From: Acidobacteriota bacterium
Lineage (GTDB): Bacteria; Acidobacteriota; Thermoanaerobaculia; Gp7-AA8
Length of the DNA stretch: 60,238 nucleotides
Assembly (NCBI GenBank): GCA_019244185.1
Contig: JAFATB010000004.1
Location: forward strand, 1-60,238
Reading direction: 5' to 3'
Made by a program: the position numbers and the translations under genes. Positions 21,963 through 33,273 of the stretch are shown piece after piece. A model generated the notes under the pieces. The model worked only from the letters and a program-made list of their open reading frames with translations. It was not told the DNA's origin and did not search any database. Every line of letters begins with the position of its first letter. Position 1 is the first letter of the stretch.

Positions 21963-23240
21963 ATGGCGCTGAACGTCATTCAGGGCTCGTTTCCGCGCGG
22001 TCTGCCTCGCTTTCCGCGGGCGGCCGACGCGTTGCGCGTGAATGCGGTGCCGCTGCCGTCGCACCTCGCGACGTTTCCGCGCGGCGGCGGGCAGCCGCTG
22101 CCGGCCGCATTTCGTCAGGCGGCGGAAGGGGCGTTCGGCGTGCGCTTCGGCGATGTGCGCGTGCACGTCGGTCCGCATGTGGCGGCGATCGGCGCGGACG
22201 CGTTCACGCACGGCTCGACGCTCCACTTCGCGACCGGCCGCTATCAGCCCGAGACTTCCGCCGGGCAGCGGCTGCTCCTGCACGAGCTCGCGCACGTCGT
22301 CCAGCAGCGCAGCGGCCGCGTACGCAGTCCGTTCCCGTGCGGCATCGCCATCGTTGGCGATGCGATGCTCGAAGCGGAAGCCGAGCGCATCGCGCAGCGC
22401 GCCGCGACGTCAATGCCGCGTCCGCAACTTCGCGCGCCGCTCGCGCGGACGTCGAGCCGCGGTTCCGTCCGGCAGGGTCTCTGGATGTACACCTATCCGG
22501 CCGGAAATCTCGTCGAGGCGGATTACAGCGTCGAAGACATGCAGCGCTTCAAGAAGGTCAGCTTCACGCACCGTGGCTTCACGGTGTGGTGCGCGCTCGA
22601 GAACGTCGCGGCGGCGCGCGTGAAGGTGGAGAACAAACTTCAGAGCGGATCGCTGATCGCGGTGCCGTCGGCGGACGATCTCGATGAGCCCGATGCGCCG
22701 AACGCCAACTGCGTCCAGGGCGCGACCATTCTGACGCGGAAGGGCTGGAACTTCGGCGCCATCGCCCGCGGCTCCGAGATCTTCATCTACGGCAACGTGT
22801 TCTATCGCCTCGGCCAGGGGGAGATCCACTTCCTGACCGCGGCGATGGTGCATCGCTTCTTCGACGGCCGCTATCCAGGCTTCACGAAAATCGACCCGCC
22901 CGACTGGCGTTACGTCTGTTCGGACTACGCGATCTCGGACGACCGCGTGAGCGACGCCGATCCGATCGAGACGACTCTGCAGAGCAACTTCACCGAGGTG
23001 CTCGACTTCACCGGCAAGAACTCCGATGACGCCAAAGCGATCCTCGAGACGACGCAAGGCCACTACGTCTGCCGCCTCGGCTATCACTACGTCCGCCTGA
23101 TGGCCGACAACCTCGGCGTCACCGTTTCGCAGAAAGACGGCGAGAGCGCCGTCTACAGCAAGCGCATGTCCTTCGACGAGGCGGCGAAGTACGTCTTCTC
23201 GAAGACGCCTTCCGTGCGGAAACTCTACCGCCGGAAGTAG
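21963..23240 (+). CDS. DUF4157 (eCIS-core) domain protein with an uncharacterised C-terminal domain
   Basis: GQPLP...FGVRFGDVRVH...GADAFTHG...LLLHELAHVVQQ...LEAEAE is the DUF4157 pattern. Confidence 0.85.
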   Translation: MALNVIQGSFPRGLPRFPRAADALRVNAVPLPSHLATFPRGGGQPLPAAFRQAAEGAFGVRFGDVRVHVGPHVAAIGADAFTHGSTLHFATGRYQPETSAGQRLLLHELAHVVQQRSGRVRSPFPCGIAIVGDAMLEAEAERIAQRAATSMPRPQLRAPLARTSSRGSVRQGLWMYTYPAGNLVEADYSVEDMQRFKKVSFTHRGFTVWCALENVAAARVKVENKLQSGSLIAVPSADDLDEPDAPNANCVQGATILTRKGWNFGAIARGSEIFIYGNVFYRLGQGEIHFLTAAMVHRFFDGRYPGFTKIDPPDWRYVCSDYAISDDRVSDADPIETTLQSNFTEVLDFTGKNSDDAKAILETTQGHYVCRLGYHYVRLMADNLGVTVSQKDGESAVYSKRMSFDEAAKYVFSKTPSVRKLYRRK

Positions 23241-24004: not shown

Positions 24005-25669
24005 TCAACCGCCCGCCCTCCGCACCACGAAACGCTCGGCCTCGTACGTCTGGATGAGCGTCGTCGCCCGCAGCGCATCGTCCGTGAACGCGTCGGTGAC
24101 GATGCGTCCGTCCATGTCGCGGCCGATCGGCAGACCCGCGGCGAAGAGCACGGTCGGCACGAGGTCGACCGCGAACGCCGGCTGCGGATTCTCGCGGTGC
24201 GCCCCGCCGGGACCGACAGCGAGGAAGAAGCCGTCGTCCGCGCCGGGATCGTCCGGCGAGAGCAGCGAGCGGGCGATGGAGTAGACGTTCGCCGGGAGCT
24301 GCGGCGCGACCACCGCCGACGGCGAGCAGACCACGACCAGCGCGTCGGGATGCTCGCGCACGATGCCGCCCAGGAGCCTGTCGAGCTGCTGCGCGTACGC
24401 GCGCAAGGCCTCGCCTTTGGCCGACGTCTTCGGCGGCAACTCGTTGGTGAAGATGTGCAGCGCGCGCTGCGCATCGGCGAATCCCTCGAGCGCGAGCACG
24501 CGCAATGCGTACGGCCGCGCGTCGCGCAACTGCGCGGCGGCGTACGCATCGCGCGCGAGCGCGGCGAGGATCGCCGGCTTCGCATCGCCGCTGCTGTTGA
24601 AACGCTCGCTGATGTTGCCGAGCGCGCGCGCGTCGACCGGCAGCGCGCGCAAGGCGTCATCCGTGACGATGCGCGTCGCGCCGCGCGGCTGCGACGACGT
24701 TTGTGTCGACGACGGCCAGCCGATGACGCTCGCGGGCAGCTGCACGCGTTCGAAGAGCGTCCAGAGCGGCAGCGCGTTGCCCGCCGGCAGCGGCGCGGAG
24801 ATCCGCTCGACCGGCGGAATGAGACCCCACGCCTGAAAGCCGACGCCGTACGGCAGCAGCAGGAACGGCTCGGCGCGATTGAGCGGAGTTCTGTACGCGA
24901 AACGTCCCGTGACGCCGTGGCGGTACGGGAGCTTGCCCGTGGCGAGCGACGCCCACAGCGACTTCGGCGTGCGCGTCGGGAACGGCTCGAGCCGCGTGAG
25001 GAACGCGCGGTCGCCCGCCGCATCGAAGAACGGCAGCAGCCCTTCGCCGCGCATCGTCACGATCCAGTCGAACGGCAGGTTGCGGATCGCGATCACGATC
25101 ACGGGACGCCGCTCGCCTACCGCGCCGATCGTCGCCACCACGACGTTCTTCCGCTCCGTGCGATAGCTCTCGCGGCGCTGATAGAGGAAGACCGACGACA
25201 GCGCGATCAGCACCACGCCGGCCACGAACAAAACGCGCGAGGTCTGGCGGTCCGCGTTGCGCTCGACGACCCACAACGCGAGCAGCACGAACGCGGTCGC
25301 TGTGATCGCGACGGTGGCTTTCGACAAAATCCGCACCGCGCCGATCGGCAGATAGAGCTGGATGCCCAGCAGCTTGAGGTGCATCCAGTAGATGCCCGCG
25401 GAGAGAAACGCCGCCAGGACGACGAAGCCGAAGCCGTGCGTGCGCCACGCCTCCGGCTTGCCGAACAGCCGCACGCGCAGCGCGCGCAGACCCCACAGCA
25501 GCGTGCCGAACAGCAGGCCGCAGGTGAGGCCGTAAACGATCGTCACCAGCACCAGCCGTCCGGGCGTGATCTCCACCTGCGGGTTGAGGAAGTACAGCAG
25601 GTGGGTCATGTACAGCCCGAAGATCGCGCCGGCGAGGACGCGTTTCAGATAGCCCCAGCGGATCGGCAC
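24005..25669 (-). CDS. Membrane protein with an alkaline phosphatase/phosphodiesterase-superfamily domain
   Basis: About 5 N-terminal TMs; PTRTPKSLWASLATGKLPYRHGV, DGFFLAVGP, VDLVPTVL...DMDGR; metal ligands look degenerate. Confidence 0.75.
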   Translation of the reverse strand: MPIRWGYLKRVLAGAIFGLYMTHLLYFLNPQVEITPGRLVLVTIVYGLTCGLLFGTLLWGLRALRVRLFGKPEAWRTHGFGFVVLAAFLSAGIYWMHLKLLGIQLYLPIGAVRILSKATVAITATAFVLLALWVVERNADRQTSRVLFVAGVVLIALSSVFLYQRRESYRTERKNVVVATIGAVGERRPVIVIAIRNLPFDWIVTMRGEGLLPFFDAAGDRAFLTRLEPFPTRTPKSLWASLATGKLPYRHGVTGRFAYRTPLNRAEPFLLLPYGVGFQAWGLIPPVERISAPLPAGNALPLWTLFERVQLPASVIGWPSSTQTSSQPRGATRIVTDDALRALPVDARALGNISERFNSSGDAKPAILAALARDAYAAAQLRDARPYALRVLALEGFADAQRALHIFTNELPPKTSAKGEALRAYAQQLDRLLGGIVREHPDALVVVCSPSAVVAPQLPANVYSIARSLLSPDDPGADDGFFLAVGPGGAHRENPQPAFAVDLVPTVLFAAGLPIGRDMDGRIVTDAFTDDALRATTLIQTYEAERFVVRRAGG

Positions 25670-25695
25670 GGGCGGAGTGTACTGGAGGCGTCGTC

Positions 25696-28600
25696 GTGCT
25701 GACCGCCGATCGCATCCGCGCCTGTGGCGGCGCACTCGCTCTCTTCCGCGAGCTCGGCTACCCGATCGCGGCCGTCGACGTCGATCCCGCCGAATGGCGC
25801 CGCGGCGGCGTCGACATCCCGTGGAACGGCGAGACATCGCTGCAGCTCGTCTCCCGCGCGCCGCGCTTCGATCTCTTTTTGCTGCGCGGTAACGTGGCCG
25901 AAGATTCGGTCGCTACATTTCTGCGCAGTTATGAAGCCTACAATCGAGCTACGAAATCAGTGCTCTTATATGAGCGCGCTAAAAAGCTGTCTGTATTCGA
26001 CTACGCGCGCGAGCGCGGGCTGCGCCGGCTCGACGTCGATCTGGCCGCGCCGACGCCGCACGCGATCGACCGGCTGAACCTCCTCGCCGCCGGCGACGAC
26101 GCGGGCGCGCTCCCGCGCATCATCGACCGCGCCCTCGATCGCGAACGCCTCACGCGCACGTTCTTCCAGCGCTTCCGCGCCGCGGTCCGCGACGTCGGTG
26201 CTTCGCTCGCGGCGTCGTTCCCGGCCGACGCGCGCGAGCAGATCGACGCGCAAGCGCTGCTCGTTCTGTCGCGGCTACTATTTCTATCGTTCATCCAGGA
26301 GAAGGGGTGGTTGAACGGCGAGCGCCGCTTTCTGGTCGATCGCCTCGCGCACGAGGTCAGCCGCGGACGCGAGTTCTACGCGCGCGTCCTCGCGCCGCTC
26401 TTCTTCGGCTGTCTCAACACGCCCCTCGACCAGCGCTCGCTCTCCGCCCGCAACCTCGGGCGCATCCCGTATCTCAACGGCGGCCTCTTCGAGCCGTCGC
26501 CGTTCGAGCGCCGCAACAGCGAGCTGCATCTGCCAAACGAGCTCCTGCTGCGCGTCGTCGAGGACGTCTTCGAGAAGTTCGACTTTCATCCTGACGAGGG
26601 CGACGCCGCGGGCACGCACGTCGATCCGGAGATGCTCGGCAAGGTCTTCGAGTCGCTCATGGCCGACGACGAGCGCGCGGCGAGCGGCAGCTTCTACACG
26701 CCGAAGGAGATCGTCGACGTGCTCGCCGAGCGCGCGATCCTCCACTGGCTCGGCGGCGATCCGACGCCGGAGAAGCTCGCGCGCATCACCGTGCTCGATC
26801 CCGCGTGCGGCTCCGGCGCGTTTCTGCTGTCCGCGCTCGGCGTGCTCGAACGACTCTGGCGCGCGACGACGCCGGAGCCGCCGCACGATCTGCGGCGACG
26901 CATCGTCGCGCGGTCGCTGTACGGCATCGATCTGAAGCCGGAGGCGGTGCGATTGTGCGAGCTGCGTCTCTGGCTGGCCATCGTGTCGACGACCGATGAC
27001 GCGATCGAGCAGATCCCGCCGCTGCCGAACCTCGACCGCAACATCCTGCAGGGCAACTCGCTCCTCGGGCCGGCCGACTTTCTCGGCGATGCGCGCGCGG
27101 ACCTCTATCACGAATGGGTCTACGCGCTGCACGCGCAGCGCGACCTGCTCGATCGCTACCGCACGGCGCCGCACGCGCAGCGTCCGGCGCTCTGCCGCGT
27201 CATCCGCGGGAACGATCAGCGGCTCGCGTGCGATCTGCTCGCGCGCGCGGCCGACGACGCCGAACGCGAGCTGCAACGCGCGACGGCGCCGCAGCGCGAT
27301 CTCTTCGGCCGCGCGATTCCGCCCGCCCCGGAGCTCTGCCGCGAACTGCAGGAGCGCGTCGCGGAGGCGCGCGAGACGCTGCGCCGCGCGGAGGAGGGGA
27401 CGCTCGATTTCTTCTCGTATGACGTGCACTTCGCGCCGGTGATGGCCGACGGCGGATTCGACGTCGTGATCGGCAACCCGCCGTGGGTGCGCAACGCACG
27501 CATCGACGCGCGCGCGAAGCGGCGGCTCGCGGATCGCTACGCGCTCTTCCGCGGCGCGCGCGACGGCACGGCCTTTCATCAGCCTGACCTTTCCGTGGCG
27601 TTCTTCGAGCGCGCGCTGCAACTCACCGCGCCGGACGGCGTGACGGCGCTGCTGATGCCCGCGAAGATCGTGAATGCGGGATATGCCGCGCCGCTGCGGC
27701 GCGCGGTGCGCGAGCGGCTCGTCGCGCTCGACGACTGGAGCGACGACGCGCGCCGGCATCGCTGGTTCGAAGCGGACACGTTTCCCCTCGGCATCGTGCT
27801 CGCGAACGATGCGGGCATGCCGCGCGAGCCGATCTGCGTGCGCACGGCGGGCGAGTCGTTCTTTCTGCCGCACGACGCGCTGAGCGTCGGCGACGCGGCC
27901 GGCGAATGGGCGCTCGTGCCGCCCGACGTCGCCGCGGTGCTGCATCGGCTGCGCGCCGCGCATCCGCCGCTCGAACGCGGGTTGCGCAGGCGTCCGGTGA
28001 TGGGCGTCAAGACGGGCGACAACCGCAGCTTCTTTCTCGACGCACAGCGGGTGCAGGGCGATCGCCTCGTGACGTCCGACGGGATTCGCGTGCCGCTCGA
28101 CGCCGTCTGTCGTTGCGTTCGCGGACGCGATCTGCAGCGCTGGAGCGTTGACGCGTCGCAGTGGATGCTGTGGCCACCCGCGAGCGGCTGGAAGACGCCG
28201 CCGCGCTGGCTGGAACGACTCGCCGCGCAGCGCGAGATGGAGCCCGACGACTTCCGCCTCTCCTTCGTCCGTCCCGAGCACGTCGGCATCAAAGTCGCCT
28301 GGAAAGACCTGGGGCGCGGCGTCTCTGCCGCCGTGCTGCCGGACGTGGTCAACGTGAACGGCCGCGCGTTTCCGCTCGTGCCGAACCAGACGCTCTATTC
28401 GCTCGACTGCGCGTCGCTCGACGAAGCGTACGTCGTCGCCGCGCTGCTCAACTCCACGATCGCCGGCGCGCTTCTCGTGTCCGTCGCCGAGCGTGCGAAG
28501 GATGCGCACTACCGCTACTTCGGCCGCACCGTCGCCGCGCTTCCCGTGCCGGCGTTGGATGCGGAATGGGACGCGCTCGTCCGCCTCTCGCGCCGCGCGC

Positions 28601-28719
28601 ACCGCGGTGTGGACGTAGGGGAGGCGATCGACGAGGCGGTGGCGCGCATGTACGGCGTGACGCGCGACGAGCTCGCGCGGCTGCGGGAGTTCCTTGCGCG
28701 GCGGTTGGGTGGGCGGTGA
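25696..28719 (+). CDS. Large gamma-class N6-adenine DNA methyltransferase (Eco57I/type IIG-like) with C-terminal TRD
   Basis: YLNGGLF, LGKVFESL, GSFYTP, LDPACGSGAF, LYGIDL, GNSL, IGNPPW, GVKTGDN, ALLNS. Confidence 0.9.
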   Translation: MLTADRIRACGGALALFRELGYPIAAVDVDPAEWRRGGVDIPWNGETSLQLVSRAPRFDLFLLRGNVAEDSVATFLRSYEAYNRATKSVLLYERAKKLSVFDYARERGLRRLDVDLAAPTPHAIDRLNLLAAGDDAGALPRIIDRALDRERLTRTFFQRFRAAVRDVGASLAASFPADAREQIDAQALLVLSRLLFLSFIQEKGWLNGERRFLVDRLAHEVSRGREFYARVLAPLFFGCLNTPLDQRSLSARNLGRIPYLNGGLFEPSPFERRNSELHLPNELLLRVVEDVFEKFDFHPDEGDAAGTHVDPEMLGKVFESLMADDERAASGSFYTPKEIVDVLAERAILHWLGGDPTPEKLARITVLDPACGSGAFLLSALGVLERLWRATTPEPPHDLRRRIVARSLYGIDLKPEAVRLCELRLWLAIVSTTDDAIEQIPPLPNLDRNILQGNSLLGPADFLGDARADLYHEWVYALHAQRDLLDRYRTAPHAQRPALCRVIRGNDQRLACDLLARAADDAERELQRATAPQRDLFGRAIPPAPELCRELQERVAEARETLRRAEEGTLDFFSYDVHFAPVMADGGFDVVIGNPPWVRNARIDARAKRRLADRYALFRGARDGTAFHQPDLSVAFFERALQLTAPDGVTALLMPAKIVNAGYAAPLRRAVRERLVALDDWSDDARRHRWFEADTFPLGIVLANDAGMPREPICVRTAGESFFLPHDALSVGDAAGEWALVPPDVAAVLHRLRAAHPPLERGLRRRPVMGVKTGDNRSFFLDAQRVQGDRLVTSDGIRVPLDAVCRCVRGRDLQRWSVDASQWMLWPPASGWKTPPRWLERLAAQREMEPDDFRLSFVRPEHVGIKVAWKDLGRGVSAAVLPDVVNVNGRAFPLVPNQTLYSLDCASLDEAYVVAALLNSTIAGALLVSVAERAKDAHYRYFGRTVAALPVPALDAEWDALVRLSRRAHRGVDVGEAIDEAVARMYGVTRDELARLREFLARRLGGR

Positions 28720-28737
28720 TCGCGACGGAACACCCTC

Positions 28738-30396
28738 ATGCTCGCTGATCACCAACGCGCCGCCGCCGCGCGGGCGCTCTTCCTCCTCGAAACGCGCGGC
28801 GGCGTGCTCCTCGCGGACGACGTCGGGCTCGGCAAGTCGTACGTCGCCGCGGAGGTGATGCGCGCGCTGCAGGGCGTCGACGTCGACCTCATCGTGCCCG
28901 CGGCGCTCGTCGCGCAGTGGCGGGAGACGCTGCGCGCGTTCGACGTCGACGCGCACATCGCGACGCATGATGGCCTCGCGACCGAGCCGTTCGTGCCGCA
29001 GCCGCGCGAGCGGCTGGTGGTCGTCGACGAGGCGCACGCGTTCCGCAACCCGCGCACGCGTCGCTACGCGGCTCTCGCGAAACGCACCATCGCGGCGCGG
29101 ATGCTGCTCGTCACCGCGACGCCGGTCTGCAACTCCGCGGCGGATCTCGAAGCGTTGCTGCGGCTCCTCGCGCGCGACGATCTCCTCGCGGACCTCGGCA
29201 TCCCGTCGATCGACTGCGCGTTCGAGTCGCGCGACGCGGAGGCGCTCGCGCGCATCGTCGGCGCGCTGGTCATCCGCCGTGACCGCAGCGTGCTGCCGGA
29301 CGAACTGCGCTTCGGCGCGCTCGAACGGCGCGTCGTCGTGCACGACGTGCTCGACGCGCCGCAGATCGACGAACTGCGTTTCCCGCTCGTCGGCGAGCAC
29401 GCGCTGCTGCGGCGCTTTCTGCGGCGGCGGCTCGAATCGAGCGAGGCGGCGCTCATCGAGTCGATCCGGCGGCAGCTGCGCTTTTACGACCGCGCGCTCG
29501 CGTGCGTCGCCGCGGGACGCGCGTTGCCGAAGCGCGAGTACCGGCGCGCGTTCGCGCACGAGGAAGATCGCGACGCGTTTCAGGAAGTGCTCTTCTGGGA
29601 TCTCTTCGCGGCCGAAGGCGCCGCCGACGCGGATGCGATTCGCGCGGAGAGCGCGCGCCTCGAAGCATTGCTCGCACTTGCGCGCGCGTCACCATGCACC
29701 AAGCGGCAACAGCTCGTCGAGCTCGTGCGCGACGAGCGCGAGCCGATGCTGATCTTCACCGGCTCCGCGGCCACGGCGCGCGATCTCCGCGACGCGCTGC
29801 AGCGCGCGCGGCCATGCGGTCTCGTCACCGCGCGCGAGCGCTCGCGCGACGCCGTGCTGGACGCGTTCCGCACCGGCCGTCTCGACCTCGTCGTGTCGAC
29901 CGACATGGCGTCGGAAGGACTCAACCTGCAGCGCGCCGGCGTCGTCGTGCACTACGACATCCCGTGGAATCCGGTGAAGCTCGACCAGCGCAACGGCCGC
30001 GCGCATCGCATCGGCCAGACGCGCGACCGCGTACGCGCCATCTACTTCATTCCGCGCAACCGCGAGACGCGCATCGTCGCCACGGTGGCGCGGAAGAACC
30101 GCGTGCGGCGCCGCGCGGTCGATGCGACGCCTTCGTCGCCGATCGCGCCGACGCTCCGTCCGCGGCTCGCGCGCACGGCCGCGTACTTTACGCTCGCCGA
30201 TGCCGCCGAACGCGCGGGACTCGTGCTGCCGGACTCGCTCGCGCGGCGGCATCGTGCGGGACTCGAGCTGCTGATGGAAGAGATGGCGCACGAGTTTCTC
30301 GACGCGCGGCGCCTCGCCGATCTCGTCGCGCTCGTCGACGCGGAACTTTGCGGCGCACGCCCGCGTTGCGACGCGCCGCATGAGAGGAACGCGTGA
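28738..30396 (+). CDS. SNF2-family helicase/translocase
   Basis: LADDVGLGKS, DEAH, TATP, SEGLNLQ, YDIPWNP, QRNGRAHRIGQ. Confidence 0.9.
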   Translation: MLADHQRAAAARALFLLETRGGVLLADDVGLGKSYVAAEVMRALQGVDVDLIVPAALVAQWRETLRAFDVDAHIATHDGLATEPFVPQPRERLVVVDEAHAFRNPRTRRYAALAKRTIAARMLLVTATPVCNSAADLEALLRLLARDDLLADLGIPSIDCAFESRDAEALARIVGALVIRRDRSVLPDELRFGALERRVVVHDVLDAPQIDELRFPLVGEHALLRRFLRRRLESSEAALIESIRRQLRFYDRALACVAAGRALPKREYRRAFAHEEDRDAFQEVLFWDLFAAEGAADADAIRAESARLEALLALARASPCTKRQQLVELVRDEREPMLIFTGSAATARDLRDALQRARPCGLVTARERSRDAVLDAFRTGRLDLVVSTDMASEGLNLQRAGVVVHYDIPWNPVKLDQRNGRAHRIGQTRDRVRAIYFIPRNRETRIVATVARKNRVRRRAVDATPSSPIAPTLRPRLARTAAYFTLADAAERAGLVLPDSLARRHRAGLELLMEEMAHEFLDARRLADLVALVDAELCGARPRCDAPHERNA

Positions 30397-31873
30397 CCTC
30401 GGCCGGATCGCGTCGTACCACCGCGGCAGCGGCGTCGCCGGCATCGACGAACGCACGTGGAGCGATCTCGATCTCGACGACGTCGTCGCGCGCATCGACA
30501 CCACGCGCAGCGGCGCCGGCCAGCAGCTCCTGTATCACCTCGTGCGCACGCCGCTCGTCGATCGCGACGCCCTCGCCGAACGCGAACGCCTGCTTGCGCG
30601 CGCCGCGGGGAAACGCGCGGCGCTGACGCGCGAGCTCGCGCCGCTCGCGAAGCTCGACCTCTACGACGTGCACCAGCTCTTCCGCCGCGAACTGCCCGAT
30701 CCGCCGCCGTCGTTGCTACTGTTTCCGATCGTCTCGCTGCTCTCGCTCCTCGCCGTCGCCAGCGCGTTCGTCGTGCCGCAGGGCATCTTCGCCCTGATCG
30801 TCATGGCCGCGGTGACGTTCGGCATCTACTACACCTACCGCCGCCGCATCTTCGAGTTCATCCAGCCGGTCACGGTGCTCAAGCGCCTGCTCGATGCGGG
30901 CGAGCGCATCGCCGCCATCCTCGGCGACGACGCGTTGCAGCGCGCCGCGCGCAGCCTCGCGCCGCTGCGCCGCGCCTCGCGCTGGCTGGTGATGGAGAAC
31001 CTGCAGGCCGACAACCTCGCCGGCTTCCTCTATCACTACCTCAACATGTTCCTGCTGCTCGACGTGAACGCGTTCGTTTTCAGCCTGGAGACGATCCGCA
31101 CGCGCGTCGCCGAGCTCGAACGGATCTTCGCCGGCGTCGGCATGACCGACGCGCTGCTCGCCGTCGACAGCTTCCGCGCGAGCGCGCGCACGGCGATCCC
31201 CGAATTCACCGACACGCCGCGCCGCGCCGAGTTCGAGCGCCTCGTGCATCCGCTGCTCGACGACGGCGTGGCGAACGATCTCGTGCTCGCGGGCAGGAGC
31301 GTGCTCGTCACGGGATCGAACATGTCCGGCAAGACGACGTTCCTGCGCGCCGCGGGCGTCAACGCCGTGCTCGCGCAGACGATCCACACCGTCTGCGCCG
31401 ACCGCTGGCGCGCGCCGCTGCTGCGCGTGCGGACCTCGATCGGCAAAGCGGACAGCCTCGCCGAAGGGCGCAGCTACTACCTGCGCGAAGTCGACGACAT
31501 CCGCGCGCTCGTCGTCGCCGCGGAAGGCGCGGAGCCGCACCTCTTCATCGTCGACGAGCTCTTTCGCGGCACGAACACGCAGGAGCGCGTCGCCGCCGGC
31601 GCGGCCGTGCTGCGGCATCTCGCGCGCGGACCGCACCTCGCGCTCGCATCGACGCACGACCTCGAACTGCTCGCGCTTCTCGGCGACGTCTACGAGTTCC
31701 ACCACTTCCGCGAGAGCATCGAAAGCGGCGATTTGACGTTCGACTACACGCTGCGGCCGGGCCCGTCATCGACGCGGAACGCGATCGCCATTCTGGCCAT
31801 GCGCGACTTCCCGCCGAGGATCGTCGAGGAAGCGCTGCGCACGTTGGCGGATCAATATACTGTGCCGTCGTGA
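30380..31873 (+). CDS. Membrane-anchored MutS-related ATPase (domain V, no mismatch-binding domain)
   Basis: TWSDLDLD, TM segments, HPLL, TGSNMSGKTT, SYYLREV, DELFRGTN, STHD. Confidence 0.88.
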   Translation: MRGTRDLGRIASYHRGSGVAGIDERTWSDLDLDDVVARIDTTRSGAGQQLLYHLVRTPLVDRDALAERERLLARAAGKRAALTRELAPLAKLDLYDVHQLFRRELPDPPPSLLLFPIVSLLSLLAVASAFVVPQGIFALIVMAAVTFGIYYTYRRRIFEFIQPVTVLKRLLDAGERIAAILGDDALQRAARSLAPLRRASRWLVMENLQADNLAGFLYHYLNMFLLLDVNAFVFSLETIRTRVAELERIFAGVGMTDALLAVDSFRASARTAIPEFTDTPRRAEFERLVHPLLDDGVANDLVLAGRSVLVTGSNMSGKTTFLRAAGVNAVLAQTIHTVCADRWRAPLLRVRTSIGKADSLAEGRSYYLREVDDIRALVVAAEGAEPHLFIVDELFRGTNTQERVAAGAAVLRHLARGPHLALASTHDLELLALLGDVYEFHHFRESIESGDLTFDYTLRPGPSSTRNAIAILAMRDFPPRIVEEALRTLADQYTVPS

Positions 31874-33273
31874 ACCTCCTCATCGTCGACGACGAGGCGT
31901 CACTCCGCGACTTTCTCTCCATCGTCTTCGAGGGAGAAGGGTGGCGTGTGGAAGTCGCTCCGTCGCTGGGCGACGCGCGCGCCGCGATCGCCCGCGCCGA
32001 GCCGGACGTCGTCCTCTGCGACCTCATGCTCCCCGATGGCTCCGGCATCGACCTCATTCGCGAGGTGAAGGCGCAGAGCCCGTCGATCGGCTTCGTCATG
32101 ATCACCGCGCACACGTCGACGCGCTCGGCGGTCGAGGCGCTCAAAGCCGGCGCGATCGACTACATCGCCAAGCCGTTCGATATCGAGGAGCTGAAGATCA
32201 TCGTCCGCAAGGCCGTCGAGCGGAAGGAGCTCGAGGACGAGAACCTCCATCTCCGCACGGCGCTCGAGGAGCGCTTCACCTTCGCCAACATCATCGGCAA
32301 GAGCGCGAAGATGCAGGAGATCTTCTCCATCGTCCAGCGCATCGCCAAGACGATGTCGACGGTGCTCATCGCCGGCGAGTCGGGCACCGGCAAAGAGCTG
32401 ATCGCGCGCGCGATTCACTACAACTCCGATCGCCGCGGAAAGTTCGTCTCGATCAACTGCGGCGCGCTGCCGGAGACGCTGCTCGAGTCGGAGCTCTTCG
32501 GCCACGAGCGGGGAGCGTTCACGGGTGCGGTGCGCGACAAGCGCGGGCTCTTTCACGAAGCCGATCGCGGCACGATCTTCCTCGACGAGATCGGCGAAAC
32601 GTCGACGGCGATGCAGATCAAGCTGCTGCGCGTGCTGCAGGATCGCGTCGTCCGCAAGGTCGGCTCGAACAACGAGTCGCCCGTCGACGTGCGCGTCATC
32701 GCGGCCACGAACCGCGATCTCTCCGAGTCGATCCGCGAGGGGACGTTCCGCGAAGACCTCTTCTACCGCATCAACGTCATTCCGATCACGCTGCCGCCGC
32801 TGCGCCACCGCCGCGAGGACATCCCGCTGCTCGTCGATCACTTCATCGAGAAGTTCGCGGTGCGGATGAACATCCCGCGCAAGCGCATCTCCGCGGACGC
32901 GATGCGCGCGATCGAGAAGTACCACTGGCCCGGCAACGTGCGCGAGCTGGAGAACGTCATCGAGCGGATGATCGCGCTCGAGCCCTCCGACGTCCTCACC
33001 ACGAAGTCGCTTCCCGAGCCGGTGCTCCTCGGCGGCCGCATCCCCGATGCCGTCTACGAGCTGCCGCAGGAAGGCATCTCGCTGCAGGATCATCTCGAGT
33101 CGATCGGAAAGATCTTCATGCTGAAGGCGCTCGAACGCTGCGGCGGCGTGCAGACGCAGGCGGCCGAGCTGCTGCGGATGTCGTTCCGTTCGTTCCGCTA
33201 CTACGCGAAAAAATACGAGCTCATCCCGCGCGAGCGCGAGGCCGAGGACGTCGTGGAGGTCGAGGAGAAATGA
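31870..33273 (+). CDS. Sigma54-dependent response regulator (NtrC/PilR-like)
   Basis: Receiver domain, GESGTGKE, GAFTGA, LDEIG, FREDLFYR, WPGNVRELEN, C-terminal HTH AAELLRMSFRSFRY (PilR-like). Confidence 0.92.
   Translation: MNLLIVDDEASLRDFLSIVFEGEGWRVEVAPSLGDARAAIARAEPDVVLCDLMLPDGSGIDLIREVKAQSPSIGFVMITAHTSTRSAVEALKAGAIDYIAKPFDIEELKIIVRKAVERKELEDENLHLRTALEERFTFANIIGKSAKMQEIFSIVQRIAKTMSTVLIAGESGTGKELIARAIHYNSDRRGKFVSINCGALPETLLESELFGHERGAFTGAVRDKRGLFHEADRGTIFLDEIGETSTAMQIKLLRVLQDRVVRKVGSNNESPVDVRVIAATNRDLSESIREGTFREDLFYRINVIPITLPPLRHRREDIPLLVDHFIEKFAVRMNIPRKRISADAMRAIEKYHWPGNVRELENVIERMIALEPSDVLTTKSLPEPVLLGGRIPDAVYELPQEGISLQDHLESIGKIFMLKALERCGGVQTQAAELLRMSFRSFRYYAKKYELIPREREAEDVVEVEEK

Follow-up and report, generated by a model that had tools for sequence, protein, structure and literature searches.

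An apparently domesticated, nuclease-less pair of an adenine methyltransferase and an SNF2 ATPase in Thermoanaerobaculia

Bacterial SNF2 proteins encoded beside DNA methyltransferases (MTases) have so far been known in defence systems that cut or exclude foreign DNA. Class 1 DISARM combines DrmA, DrmB (DUF1998) and DrmC with DrmD and DrmMI, and thereby places an SNF2 helicase beside an N6-adenine MTase. The same theme is found in BREX, a non-cleaving precedent in which the large MTase PglX/BrxX is accompanied, in type 3, by the SNF2 helicase BrxHII. Systems centred on Hma/DUF499 comprise a DUF499 AAA+ ATPase, an MTase and a nuclease-bearing Swi2/Snf2 helicase (PMC12839542), and the Hma helicase is reported to require its nuclease domain for defence (PMC11232893). 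A further paper notes a type II restriction-modification (RM) coding sequence with an adjacent PLD+SNF coding sequence (PMC9881135). Here we describe a related pair of genes in a 60,238-nt stretch of an Acidobacteriota genome (assembly GCA_019244185.1, contig JAFATB010000004.1; hereafter the window). An MTase gene (25,696–28,719, + strand, 1007 aa, GTG start) is followed after 18 nt by an SNF2 ATPase gene (28,738–30,396, +, 552 aa), which overlaps by 17 nt, at its stop codon, a gene for a MutS domain V ATPase (30,380–31,873, +, 497 aa). The GTG start at 25,696 is supported because an ATG aligns at the same position in 8 of 12 orthologues. A previous sequence-only reading had delimited these three genes exactly so and had proposed them as a new DNA-surveillance system, perhaps domesticated and non-cleaving. 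We find that neither the MTase nor the SNF2 protein has a conserved nuclease motif and that the pair is neither a DISARM, BREX or Hma system nor an active type IIG enzyme.

DrmD is the best helicase match of the window SNF2 (1e-32 in PADLOC, ahead of DpdE and BrxH; 1e-36 in NCBIfam), but the score of 126.7 bits compares with an NCBIfam cut-off of 610. No PLD gene of the DrmC type and no DrmA gene were found near the pair, and a search of the own genome (98.9% complete) for PF09369 (DUF1998/MZB) returned 0 matches, while the controls responded in 8 of 14 cases. The MTase shares a similar large fold with the BREX protein PglX/BrxX (Foldseek 2e-19) and reaches 49–53 bits against the PglX models of NCBIfam, whose cut-offs are 400–900; PglZ (PF08665) gave 0 matches in the own genome and BrxC was likewise not found. 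As for Hma, the window SNF2 differs in having no nuclease domain, the PADLOC model HmaA matches only its helicase C-lobe (1.6e-20), and DUF499 (PF04465), the ATPase of Hma and related BREX systems, gave 0 matches in the own genome. All NCBIfam equivalog scores obtained for the pair are far below their cut-offs. The statement of the sequence-only reading that the partner genes of DISARM and BREX are missing here is borne out, and the pair fits no defined DISARM, BREX or Hma model.

The two genes are strongly linked. We compared 12 loci of the window's order within Thermoanaerobaculia: nine belong to genomes of the same genus, of which G002 is unpublished, and the remaining three represent other families. 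The SNF2 gene lies directly behind the MTase gene in all 12, often with overlapping stop and start codons, and the same downstream genes follow in 9/9 loci of the genus and in one of the three loci from other families. The order was sampled with 81 genomes, of which G002, G128 and G136 are unpublished; the MTase was detected in 79 of them (E ≤ 1e-60) and the SNF2 in 77 (E ≤ 1e-40), the latter in 70 of the 73 high-quality genomes; each protein is present in 36/36 genera. When place tables were compared, the MTase was found immediately upstream of the SNF2 on the same strand in 75 of 77 genomes, and the other two cases are matches at contig ends. The pair occupies a single locus per genome across the order, the own genome carries no second copy (paralogue) of the MTase, and no orthologue-level match was obtained in thirteen genomes of other orders of the class. 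These results show that the pair is inherited vertically: it is near-universal, single-copy and syntenic across the window's order. The term domesticated, as used in the sequence-only reading, fits this distribution.

We then extended the search for relatives of the MTase to species-representative genomes. This revealed a second large group, mostly titled Gemmatimonadota and including a Gemmatimonas-titled metagenome-assembled genome (MAG; L048), whose MTases are 33–41% identical to that of the window. The SNF2 gene stands right behind the MTase gene in 39/39 assessable loci of this type (nine more end too early), and it is also downstream of the MTase gene in 3/3 loci from Myxococcales/Deltaproteobacteria. 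In the Gemmatimonadales-titled order to which the genome holding locus L072 belongs, 53 of 61 evenly drawn genomes present one strong match to the SNF2 of that locus. The flanks of the Gemmatimonadota-type loci are likewise housekeeping genes, for example a HAD hydrolase. The published methylome of Gemmatirosa, a possible carrier of the pair, contains N6-methyladenine (m6A) motifs without an assigned enzyme, among them ATGCAC (PMC3974934).

Both genes evolve under purifying selection. Using the Nei-Gojobori method over 36 pairs of nine genus-level orthologues, we obtained ratios of nonsynonymous to synonymous divergence (dN/dS) of 0.20–0.33 in every domain of the MTase and of the SNF2. The synonymous divergence of these pairs (dS of about 0.65–1.1) is probably damped by a strong bias in third-position GC-content (GC3), so these ratios are upper-ish estimates. 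The catalytic domain of the MTase shows a genus identity of 78% and a dN/dS of 0.25, as compared with 69–70% and 0.30–0.33 for the target recognition domain (TRD) with the C-terminal region. By these values the TRD is not hypervariable, unlike that of phase-variable or arms-race MTases. The reading frames are open in the orthologues that were read, and stops elsewhere are consistent with alignments overrunning the end of the gene. The pair shows no decay, a possibility that the sequence-only reading had wanted checked by dN/dS.

The first protein is a gamma-class N6-adenine DNA MTase with an MmeI/Eco57I (type IIG/IIL-like) architecture. From its N-terminus it comprises an alpha/beta domain without conserved catalytic residues (residues 1–140; 25,696–26,115), a helical spacer resembling that of MmeI (residues 141–305; 26,116–26,610), a catalytic domain (residues 306–680; 26,611–27,735), and a TRD (residues 681–905) that continues into a C-terminal helical region (residues 906–1007; together 27,736–28,716), all on the + strand. 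N-terminal domain, helical spacer, gamma-class MTase and TRD follow in the same order in the type IIL/IIG enzymes MmeI, DrdV and BpuSI. The Pfam matches are Eco57I (8.6e-21), N6_Mtase (1.1e-15) and MmeI_Mtase (2.7e-9), together with a weak match of the spacer to MmeI_hel (9.1e-4, residues 191–265; helices span 136–292 in the AlphaFold2 model). The best PADLOC models are REase_MTase_IIG (9.5e-37) and DrmMI (3e-28), and the type IIG profiles align only from residue ~141–158 onward. Motif I, DPACGSG (residues 368–374; nt 26,797–26,817), and motif IV, NPPW (residues 594–597; nt 27,475–27,486), are invariant in 12 orthologues; across 36 wider relatives the invariant motif residues are D368, P369, A370, G372, G374 and N594–W597. 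The full-length AlphaFold2 model (pLDDT 89.3, pTM 0.88) shows the TRD and C-terminal region as a beta-rich domain followed by helices, with many residues invariant in the 12 orthologues. Foldseek matched this model to CamA (4e-23), BrxX/PglX (2e-19), MmeI (1.3e-16), BpuSI (5e-14), DrdV (4e-12) and also M.BseCI.

A side observation concerns residues ~355–360 of the MTase (window ~26,760–26,775). The tblastn matches split at this place in many genomes of other genera of the order, and one orthologue (L018) carries an insertion of about 22 residues there, just ahead of motif I. Judging from these alignments, the region is a variable loop.

Type IIG/IIL enzymes carry an N-terminal PD-(D/E)xK nuclease. 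In the window MTase the first 140 residues fold as an alpha/beta domain of their own (pLDDT 92.6 in a model of the domain). Among 38 sequences of this domain from three phyla, no column is invariant and only G21 and L130 reach 90%. Within the order the residues M1, L16, L20, W34, G38, R111, R126, L127 and L130 are invariant in 12 orthologues; no acidic residue and no lysine, the kinds that make up a PD-(D/E)xK site, is invariant in these 12 or in the 38 wider domains. None of the 38 matched Pfam MmeI_N, and one of them gave a weak match to an inactive restriction endonuclease (REase) family (E 0.013). Because no residue is invariant across the wider set and none that is acidic or lysine within the order, the domain is not an active nuclease, whatever its ancestry. 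The fold comparisons are less clear. The best structural alignment made with VIA has a middling Z of 6.0; the nuclease domain of DrdV, which occupies the equivalent position, aligns weakly over 110 residues (Z 5.7), and a few other PD-(D/E)xK-type proteins reach Z 4.1–5.5. Foldseek yielded no match in the PDB at E ≤ 1e-3, a profile of the domain gave chance-level rows only against PDB sequences, and in the ESM Atlas an MmeI_N cluster appeared for residues 1–140 only at rank 14 (score 0.87), which is a lead only. The sequence-only reading had seen no convincing PD-(D/E)xK motif here and had called for structure prediction to uncover a cryptic nuclease: its claim stands. The domain may represent either an REase-like fold that has degenerated or a module for docking. 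It is common to the window MTase and to the PLD-linked MTases described below (hhalign E 8e-5, 126 columns, probability 61%), a pattern that fits a family-specific role in docking the partner at least as well as a former nuclease role. Predictions of a complex between MTase residues 1–310 and the SNF2 gave 0.00, 0.70 and 0.00 in three runs and weigh neither way.

The second protein presents the Q motif, Walker A, DEAH, motifs III–VI and Snf2-type core of the Swi2/Snf2 ATPase superfamily and is a member of it (Pfam Helicase_C 1.8e-19, SNF2-rel_dom 1.2e-11). The Q motif, Walker A (G30–S34; nt 28,825–28,839), DEAH (residues 97–100; nt 29,026–29,037) and motif VI (residues 417–427; nt 29,986–30,018), on the + strand, are invariant in 14 orthologues. 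Thus the motifs of both proteins, reported as intact from the letters of the window alone, are also conserved. The SNF2 protein opens at its Q motif, and with Walker A at residue 30 there is no room for an N-terminal PLD domain; Pfam finds no PLDc domain in it. Motif VI is followed by about 117–136 residues with a basic stretch and a short conserved helical tail, about 15 additional C-terminal residues being specific to the window form. A profile of the 14 orthologues matches the cores of SWR1, a Sulfolobus Rad54-like protein, ISWI and RapA at 7e-29 to 1e-25, and DDM1/HELLS chains at ~1e-19 to 1e-21. The protein is a minimal Swi2/Snf2 ATPase without an accessory or nuclease domain, and the pair as a whole is nuclease-less, as had been suggested.

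Distant relatives indicate where such a pair might come from. MTases with 24–30% identity occur in Cyanobacteriota, Chloroflexota, Actinomycetota, Verrucomicrobiota, Omnitrophota and others, and their SNF2 partners, encoded adjacently or a few kb away, are 1050–1170 aa long. All 9 of the long partners scanned with Pfam carry an N-terminal PLDc_2 (PLD/HKD) domain, and Walker A lies at ~260–296 in these forms, compared with residue 30 in the window. A strict HxK(x)4D regular expression recovered the motif in only 2 of the PLD-bearing proteins and was set aside in favour of Pfam. In PADLOC the long partners match 'C3a139 HKD+Snf2', whereas the MTases beside them score up to 862 bits against 'REase_MTase_IIG'. 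Since the distant relatives pair the same kind of MTase with a PLD-SNF2 protein, we infer that the window pair is a nuclease-less derivative of an RM-like system. The proposal of a wholly new system is not supported; the pair is the nuclease-less branch of a known arrangement.

To place this branch, we built a tree with FastTree from 48 MTases with complete MTase and SNF2 reading frames, rooted at the midpoint. Four loci with odd MTase lengths (L092, L094, L103 and L104), truncated loci and most near-duplicate genus loci were left out, and 13 rows were labelled PLD, 9 by Pfam PLDc_2 and 4 by size and Walker A position. A single branch with SH-like support of 100 splits all 35 PLD-less rows from the 13 rows with a long SNF2. 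Thermoanaerobaculia (9 rows, support 100) are separate from the Gemmatimonadota group with L042 (26 rows, support 95). A single loss of the nuclease is consistent with this tree but not proven, because the root is only a midpoint root. The SNF2 sizes shrink stepwise, from ~1050–1170 aa with PLD to ~710–870 aa in the Gemmatimonadota group, where start codons are uncertain, and to ~520–550 aa in the window's genus.

Several observations were made on single members of this family. The SNF2 of L042 (3714–6911) is an outlier in the PLD-less clade, with 1066 aa and an N-terminal region of 228 residues. BLASTP revealed no similarity of this region to a PLD-bearing partner, so that L042 does not document an intermediate form; the region could be either a remnant that has degenerated or another kind of domain. 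The Gemmatimonadota-type SNF2 proteins (L034–L102, e.g., L072:9564–11849) extend for 220–340 residues past motif VI, a region with no Pfam family and no clear lead in the ESM Atlas, most of which has been lost from the window SNF2. In an Omnitrophota MAG, a PLD-SNF2 and MTase pair (L086:9916–13916) is followed by Gabija-like genes, namely AAA_15 with an OLD-type TOPRIM and a UvrD-type helicase. This pair is in a defence-island context, unlike that of the window.

The third gene has a different history. Its product matches MutS_V (Pfam, 3.3e-25) and no Hma model of PADLOC; hydrophobic windows at residues 108–153 are consistent with a membrane anchor. We considered it as a member of the module and rejected it: the gene is absent from 12/12 related loci, no orthologue (E ≤ 1e-90) was found in the 34 other genomes of the genus, and 0 of 82 loci of its relatives (among L109–L188 and L191–L196) present an MTase or SNF2 neighbour. 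In the family, orthologues at the same threshold occur in 5 of 123 other genomes and directly behind SNF2 only in G125 (67% identity), where a hydrolase-like gene accompanies it; the pair locus thus includes the gene in 2 of the 124 genomes of the family. Of the four remaining genomes with an orthologue, three (G196 is not among them) hold a homologue of 45–48% identity on another contig or far from the pair. Metagenome proteins 67–86% identical to the MutS-V protein exist, four of them on contigs equal in size to those with close SNF2 homologues. The MTase-SNF2-MutS-V trio therefore marks a small sub-lineage. The wider family of MutS-V proteins is large (1515 at E ≤ 1e-40) and stand-alone, and its members occur in soil, aquatic and gut metagenomes. 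On this distribution the MutS-V gene is an accessory gene, a later add-on in a small sub-lineage, and the doubt already voiced about its membership was justified.

The slot between SNF2 and the NtrC-like regulator (window 30,397–31,926; compared in L011–L022 and L196) is itself variable within the order. Depending on the genome, it is empty or holds a minus-strand glycoside-hydrolase-like TIM-barrel gene, another gene, MutS-V, or MutS-V with a hydrolase-like gene.

The pair is surrounded by ordinary genes. The window has a G+C content of about 66%, and the GC3 of the three genes (0.86–0.91) is similar to that of the neighbouring genes. Among the neighbours between 17,102 and 38,516 we identified an amidohydrolase, an NAD kinase, a ClpX-like ATPase, an eCIS-core-domain protein, a ComEA-like HhH protein and a multi-pass membrane protein, and, downstream, an NtrC-type response regulator, DUF192, a rhomboid-like protein, a PTPS-family protein, a DnaJ-domain protein and an ECF sigma factor. 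A scan of this interval with Pfam and NCBIfam revealed no mobility genes. Host-like codon usage and the lack of flanking mobility genes, both noted from the sequence before, are thereby confirmed.

The membrane protein is encoded divergently, outside the module, by a gene of ~553 aa (24,005–25,666, − strand) that has several hydrophobic windows, matches no Pfam or NCBIfam family and ends up about 30 nt from the MTase start. The open reading frame was listed as 24,005–25,837; its relatives align only from about residue 57, and the N-terminal extension is interrupted by stops in several of them. The gene most likely starts near 25,666 and not at 25,837, and would therefore not overlap the MTase gene. 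It adjoins the MTase in 11 of the 12 loci, and the twelfth (L011) begins 170 nt before the MTase. We rejected it as a module member, as no match to it was found in the Gemmatimonadota-type loci. Further upstream, a gene at 21,963–23,240 (+) encodes a 425-aa protein with an eCIS core (DUF4157) domain. No match covering at least 40% of its length was found in the 12 related loci, where both its neighbours are conserved, and it looks like a variable insert.

We propose that the pair is a domesticated, non-cleaving, ATP-assisted methylation module, in which the motor would assist the MTase and the host would have adopted the m6A mark for functions of its own. We give this reading a probability of roughly 0.45. 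It would start from a two-gene RM-like ancestor, whose MTase subunit provided sequence recognition and whose PLD-SNF2 subunit provided ATP-driven translocation and cutting; the cutting domain would then have been lost and the remaining pair domesticated. The present MTase would read a short asymmetric motif through its TRD and methylate an adenine. The SNF2 motor would probably dock on the MTase, with the family-specific N-terminal domain perhaps as the contact site, and probably use ATP to travel along DNA or to loosen it. This could make both the search for sites and their methylation efficient, for instance once replication has passed or where proteins coat the DNA, the service to the MTase being one of access, processivity or ATP-gated recognition of sites. 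The outcome would not be cleavage but an m6A mark shared by the lineage, which the cell would use for itself in regulation, replication or repair. Because the motor was kept under purifying selection after the loss of PLD, ATP-driven action on DNA must still pay. We prefer this explanation because of the housekeeping-like distribution, the stable TRD, the non-island context and the precedents of CamA and Dnmt5, which are taken up below.

Several points weigh against this interpretation. The MTases of type I, III, ISP and BREX systems methylate without needing a motor, and the need of methylation for the SNF2 is thus pure inference. The closest characterised relatives of both proteins are all defence proteins. 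With a genus identity of about 70%, the pair diverges faster than the flanking NtrC-like regulator (~89%) or ClpX-like ATPase (~84%), which would fit a conflict system as well. The fold matches of the N-terminal domain are middling at best (VIA Z ≤ 6.0, none by Foldseek). Finally, a search for sequencing runs listed DNA runs only and no RNA run.

The main alternative, which we regard as less likely, is a non-cleaving defence, fixed in these lineages, in which the MTase marks self and the complex translocates on unmethylated incoming DNA, excluding it in a BREX-like manner. Translocation would block replication or transcription, or strip proteins. Such a role would account for the rapid divergence relative to the housekeeping flanks and for the selection on the ATPase motifs of the SNF2 although cleavage is gone. 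It also agrees with the models against which both proteins score best (REase_MTase_IIG, DrmMI, DrmD, DpdE and BrxH) and with the defence contexts of the PLD-nuclease relatives, such as L086 beside its AAA_15+TOPRIM and UvrD genes. However, the distribution is not what would be expected of a defence system: the pair is near-universal, single-copy and fixed in its synteny in 36/36 genera, and the second order shows it in 53/61 genomes. Moreover, variability in the TRD does not exceed that of the remaining protein, an inversion or shuffling partner and a paralogue of the MTase are missing, the surroundings hold neither defence nor mobile genes, and no effector is identifiable. The blocking of foreign DNA, as first suggested for this locus, is therefore not supported, and the pattern is that of housekeeping genes and not of a defence island.

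The two genes might instead have separate functions within one operon, a solitary epigenetic MTase being expressed together with a RapA-like SNF2 that acts on RNA polymerase or stalled complexes. Solitary MTases derived from type IIG enzymes exist, CamA is the best fold match of the MTase, and the SNF2 profile matches RapA at 2e-25 (NCBIfam RapA 1.7e-14). That match is nevertheless limited to the shared helicase C-lobe, and the N- and C-terminal domains of RapA were not found. The two genes stay adjacent over three phyla, and have done so through the transition between forms with and without PLD; in many relatives the stop codon of the first overlaps the start codon of the second, so that we regard independent functions as unlikely.

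Restriction with a nuclease acting in trans appears quite unlikely. The complex would recognise unmodified sites and recruit or activate a nuclease encoded elsewhere, possibly together with MutS-V in G000/G125, the two genomes in which this gene is tightly packed behind SNF2. The ancestor-like relatives do bear a PLD nuclease on the SNF2 protein, and the conserved non-catalytic N-terminal domain of the MTase and the SNF2 tail could be docking surfaces. But neither phylum conserves a third gene beside the pair, the content of the slot behind SNF2 changes (empty, glycoside-hydrolase-like or MutS-V), and MutS-V has no nuclease domain by Pfam and is near an MTase or SNF2 in none of the 82 loci of its relatives. 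That the pair is a decaying RM-like remnant without present function, as the loss of the nuclease domain and an SNF2 shorter than in relatives might suggest, is in effect refuted by sequence conservation: the two proteins have catalytic motifs that are invariant over order-level divergence, dN/dS is 0.2–0.33 and the frames are open.

Returning to the domesticated methylation module, we also consider a more specific form of it, which we hold tentatively and which is less probable than the general one. The pair could be a bacterial counterpart of eukaryotic SNF2-dependent methylation, in which m6A methylation by a type IIG-derived MTase depends on a minimal motor or is shaped by it; the pair would have arisen once and have long been kept in Thermoanaerobaculia and Gemmatimonadota. 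One example of such dependence would be that the hemimethylated sites present after replication are recognised in an ATP-gated manner. Should the motor serve methylation, the pair would represent an ATP-driven remodeller coupled to DNA methylation in bacteria, and it would clearly illustrate how a restriction-like system can become part of housekeeping epigenetics. Should the pair be a fixed non-cleaving defence, it would offer a minimal two-gene model of BREX-like exclusion. The two-protein core known from defence has here shed its nuclease and, in two soil lineages that are abundant, behaves as core genes do. Annotations such as 'type IIG restriction enzyme' or 'DrmD/DrmMI' are wrong for these genes.

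Among known MTases, a parallel in conservation is found in the housekeeping class of Dam, CcrM and CamA, defined by lineage-wide vertical conservation without a cognate nuclease; the window MTase shares this property (79/81 genomes, 36/36 genera, syntenic). CamA of Clostridioides difficile, a solitary and species-wide adenine MTase, is also the best structural match to the MTase and TRD (E 4e-23, TM 0.72–0.75 on the target). Both are kept by their lineage without a cognate nuclease. CamA differs in its size of ~577 residues (matched chains 560–576) and lacks the N-terminal domain and spacer of the window MTase, and we know of no SNF2 partner for it. The obligate SNF2 neighbour likewise distinguishes the window MTase from type IIG/IIL enzymes, as does the lack of conserved nuclease residues and of an MmeI_N match.

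For the coupling itself, the analogues are eukaryotic. In fungal Dnmt5, ATP hydrolysis by the fused SNF2 domain is reported to be essential for methylation. Under the model that we prefer, Dnmt5 and the DDM1/HELLS proteins with their DNMTs would be alike in coupling an SNF2 ATPase to a DNA MTase, and the likeness is one of functional analogy and not of family membership. Those systems deposit 5-methylcytosine whereas the window pair would deposit m6A, and the pair consists of separate polypeptides, works without nucleosomes and would have an independent, RM-like origin.

The literature that we searched contains no description of a nuclease-less, lineage-wide MTase-SNF2 pair. The closest described arrangement is that of the PLD(HKD)-SNF2 proteins with Eco57I/MmeI-like ('type IIG', Cj0031-like) MTases. 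Their MTases are homologous to that of the window over the full length, including the N-terminal domain, the SNF2 cores are homologous, and the genes are likewise adjacent or a few kb apart on one strand. The window SNF2 differs by lacking the PLD domain of ~230 aa and ~200 C-terminal residues, its MTase forms a separate clade in the tree, and the pair is a core syntenic pair and not an island gene. What is new here is thus a nuclease-less, apparently domesticated form of a known RM-like arrangement, and the surprise lies mainly in its lineage-wide fixation.

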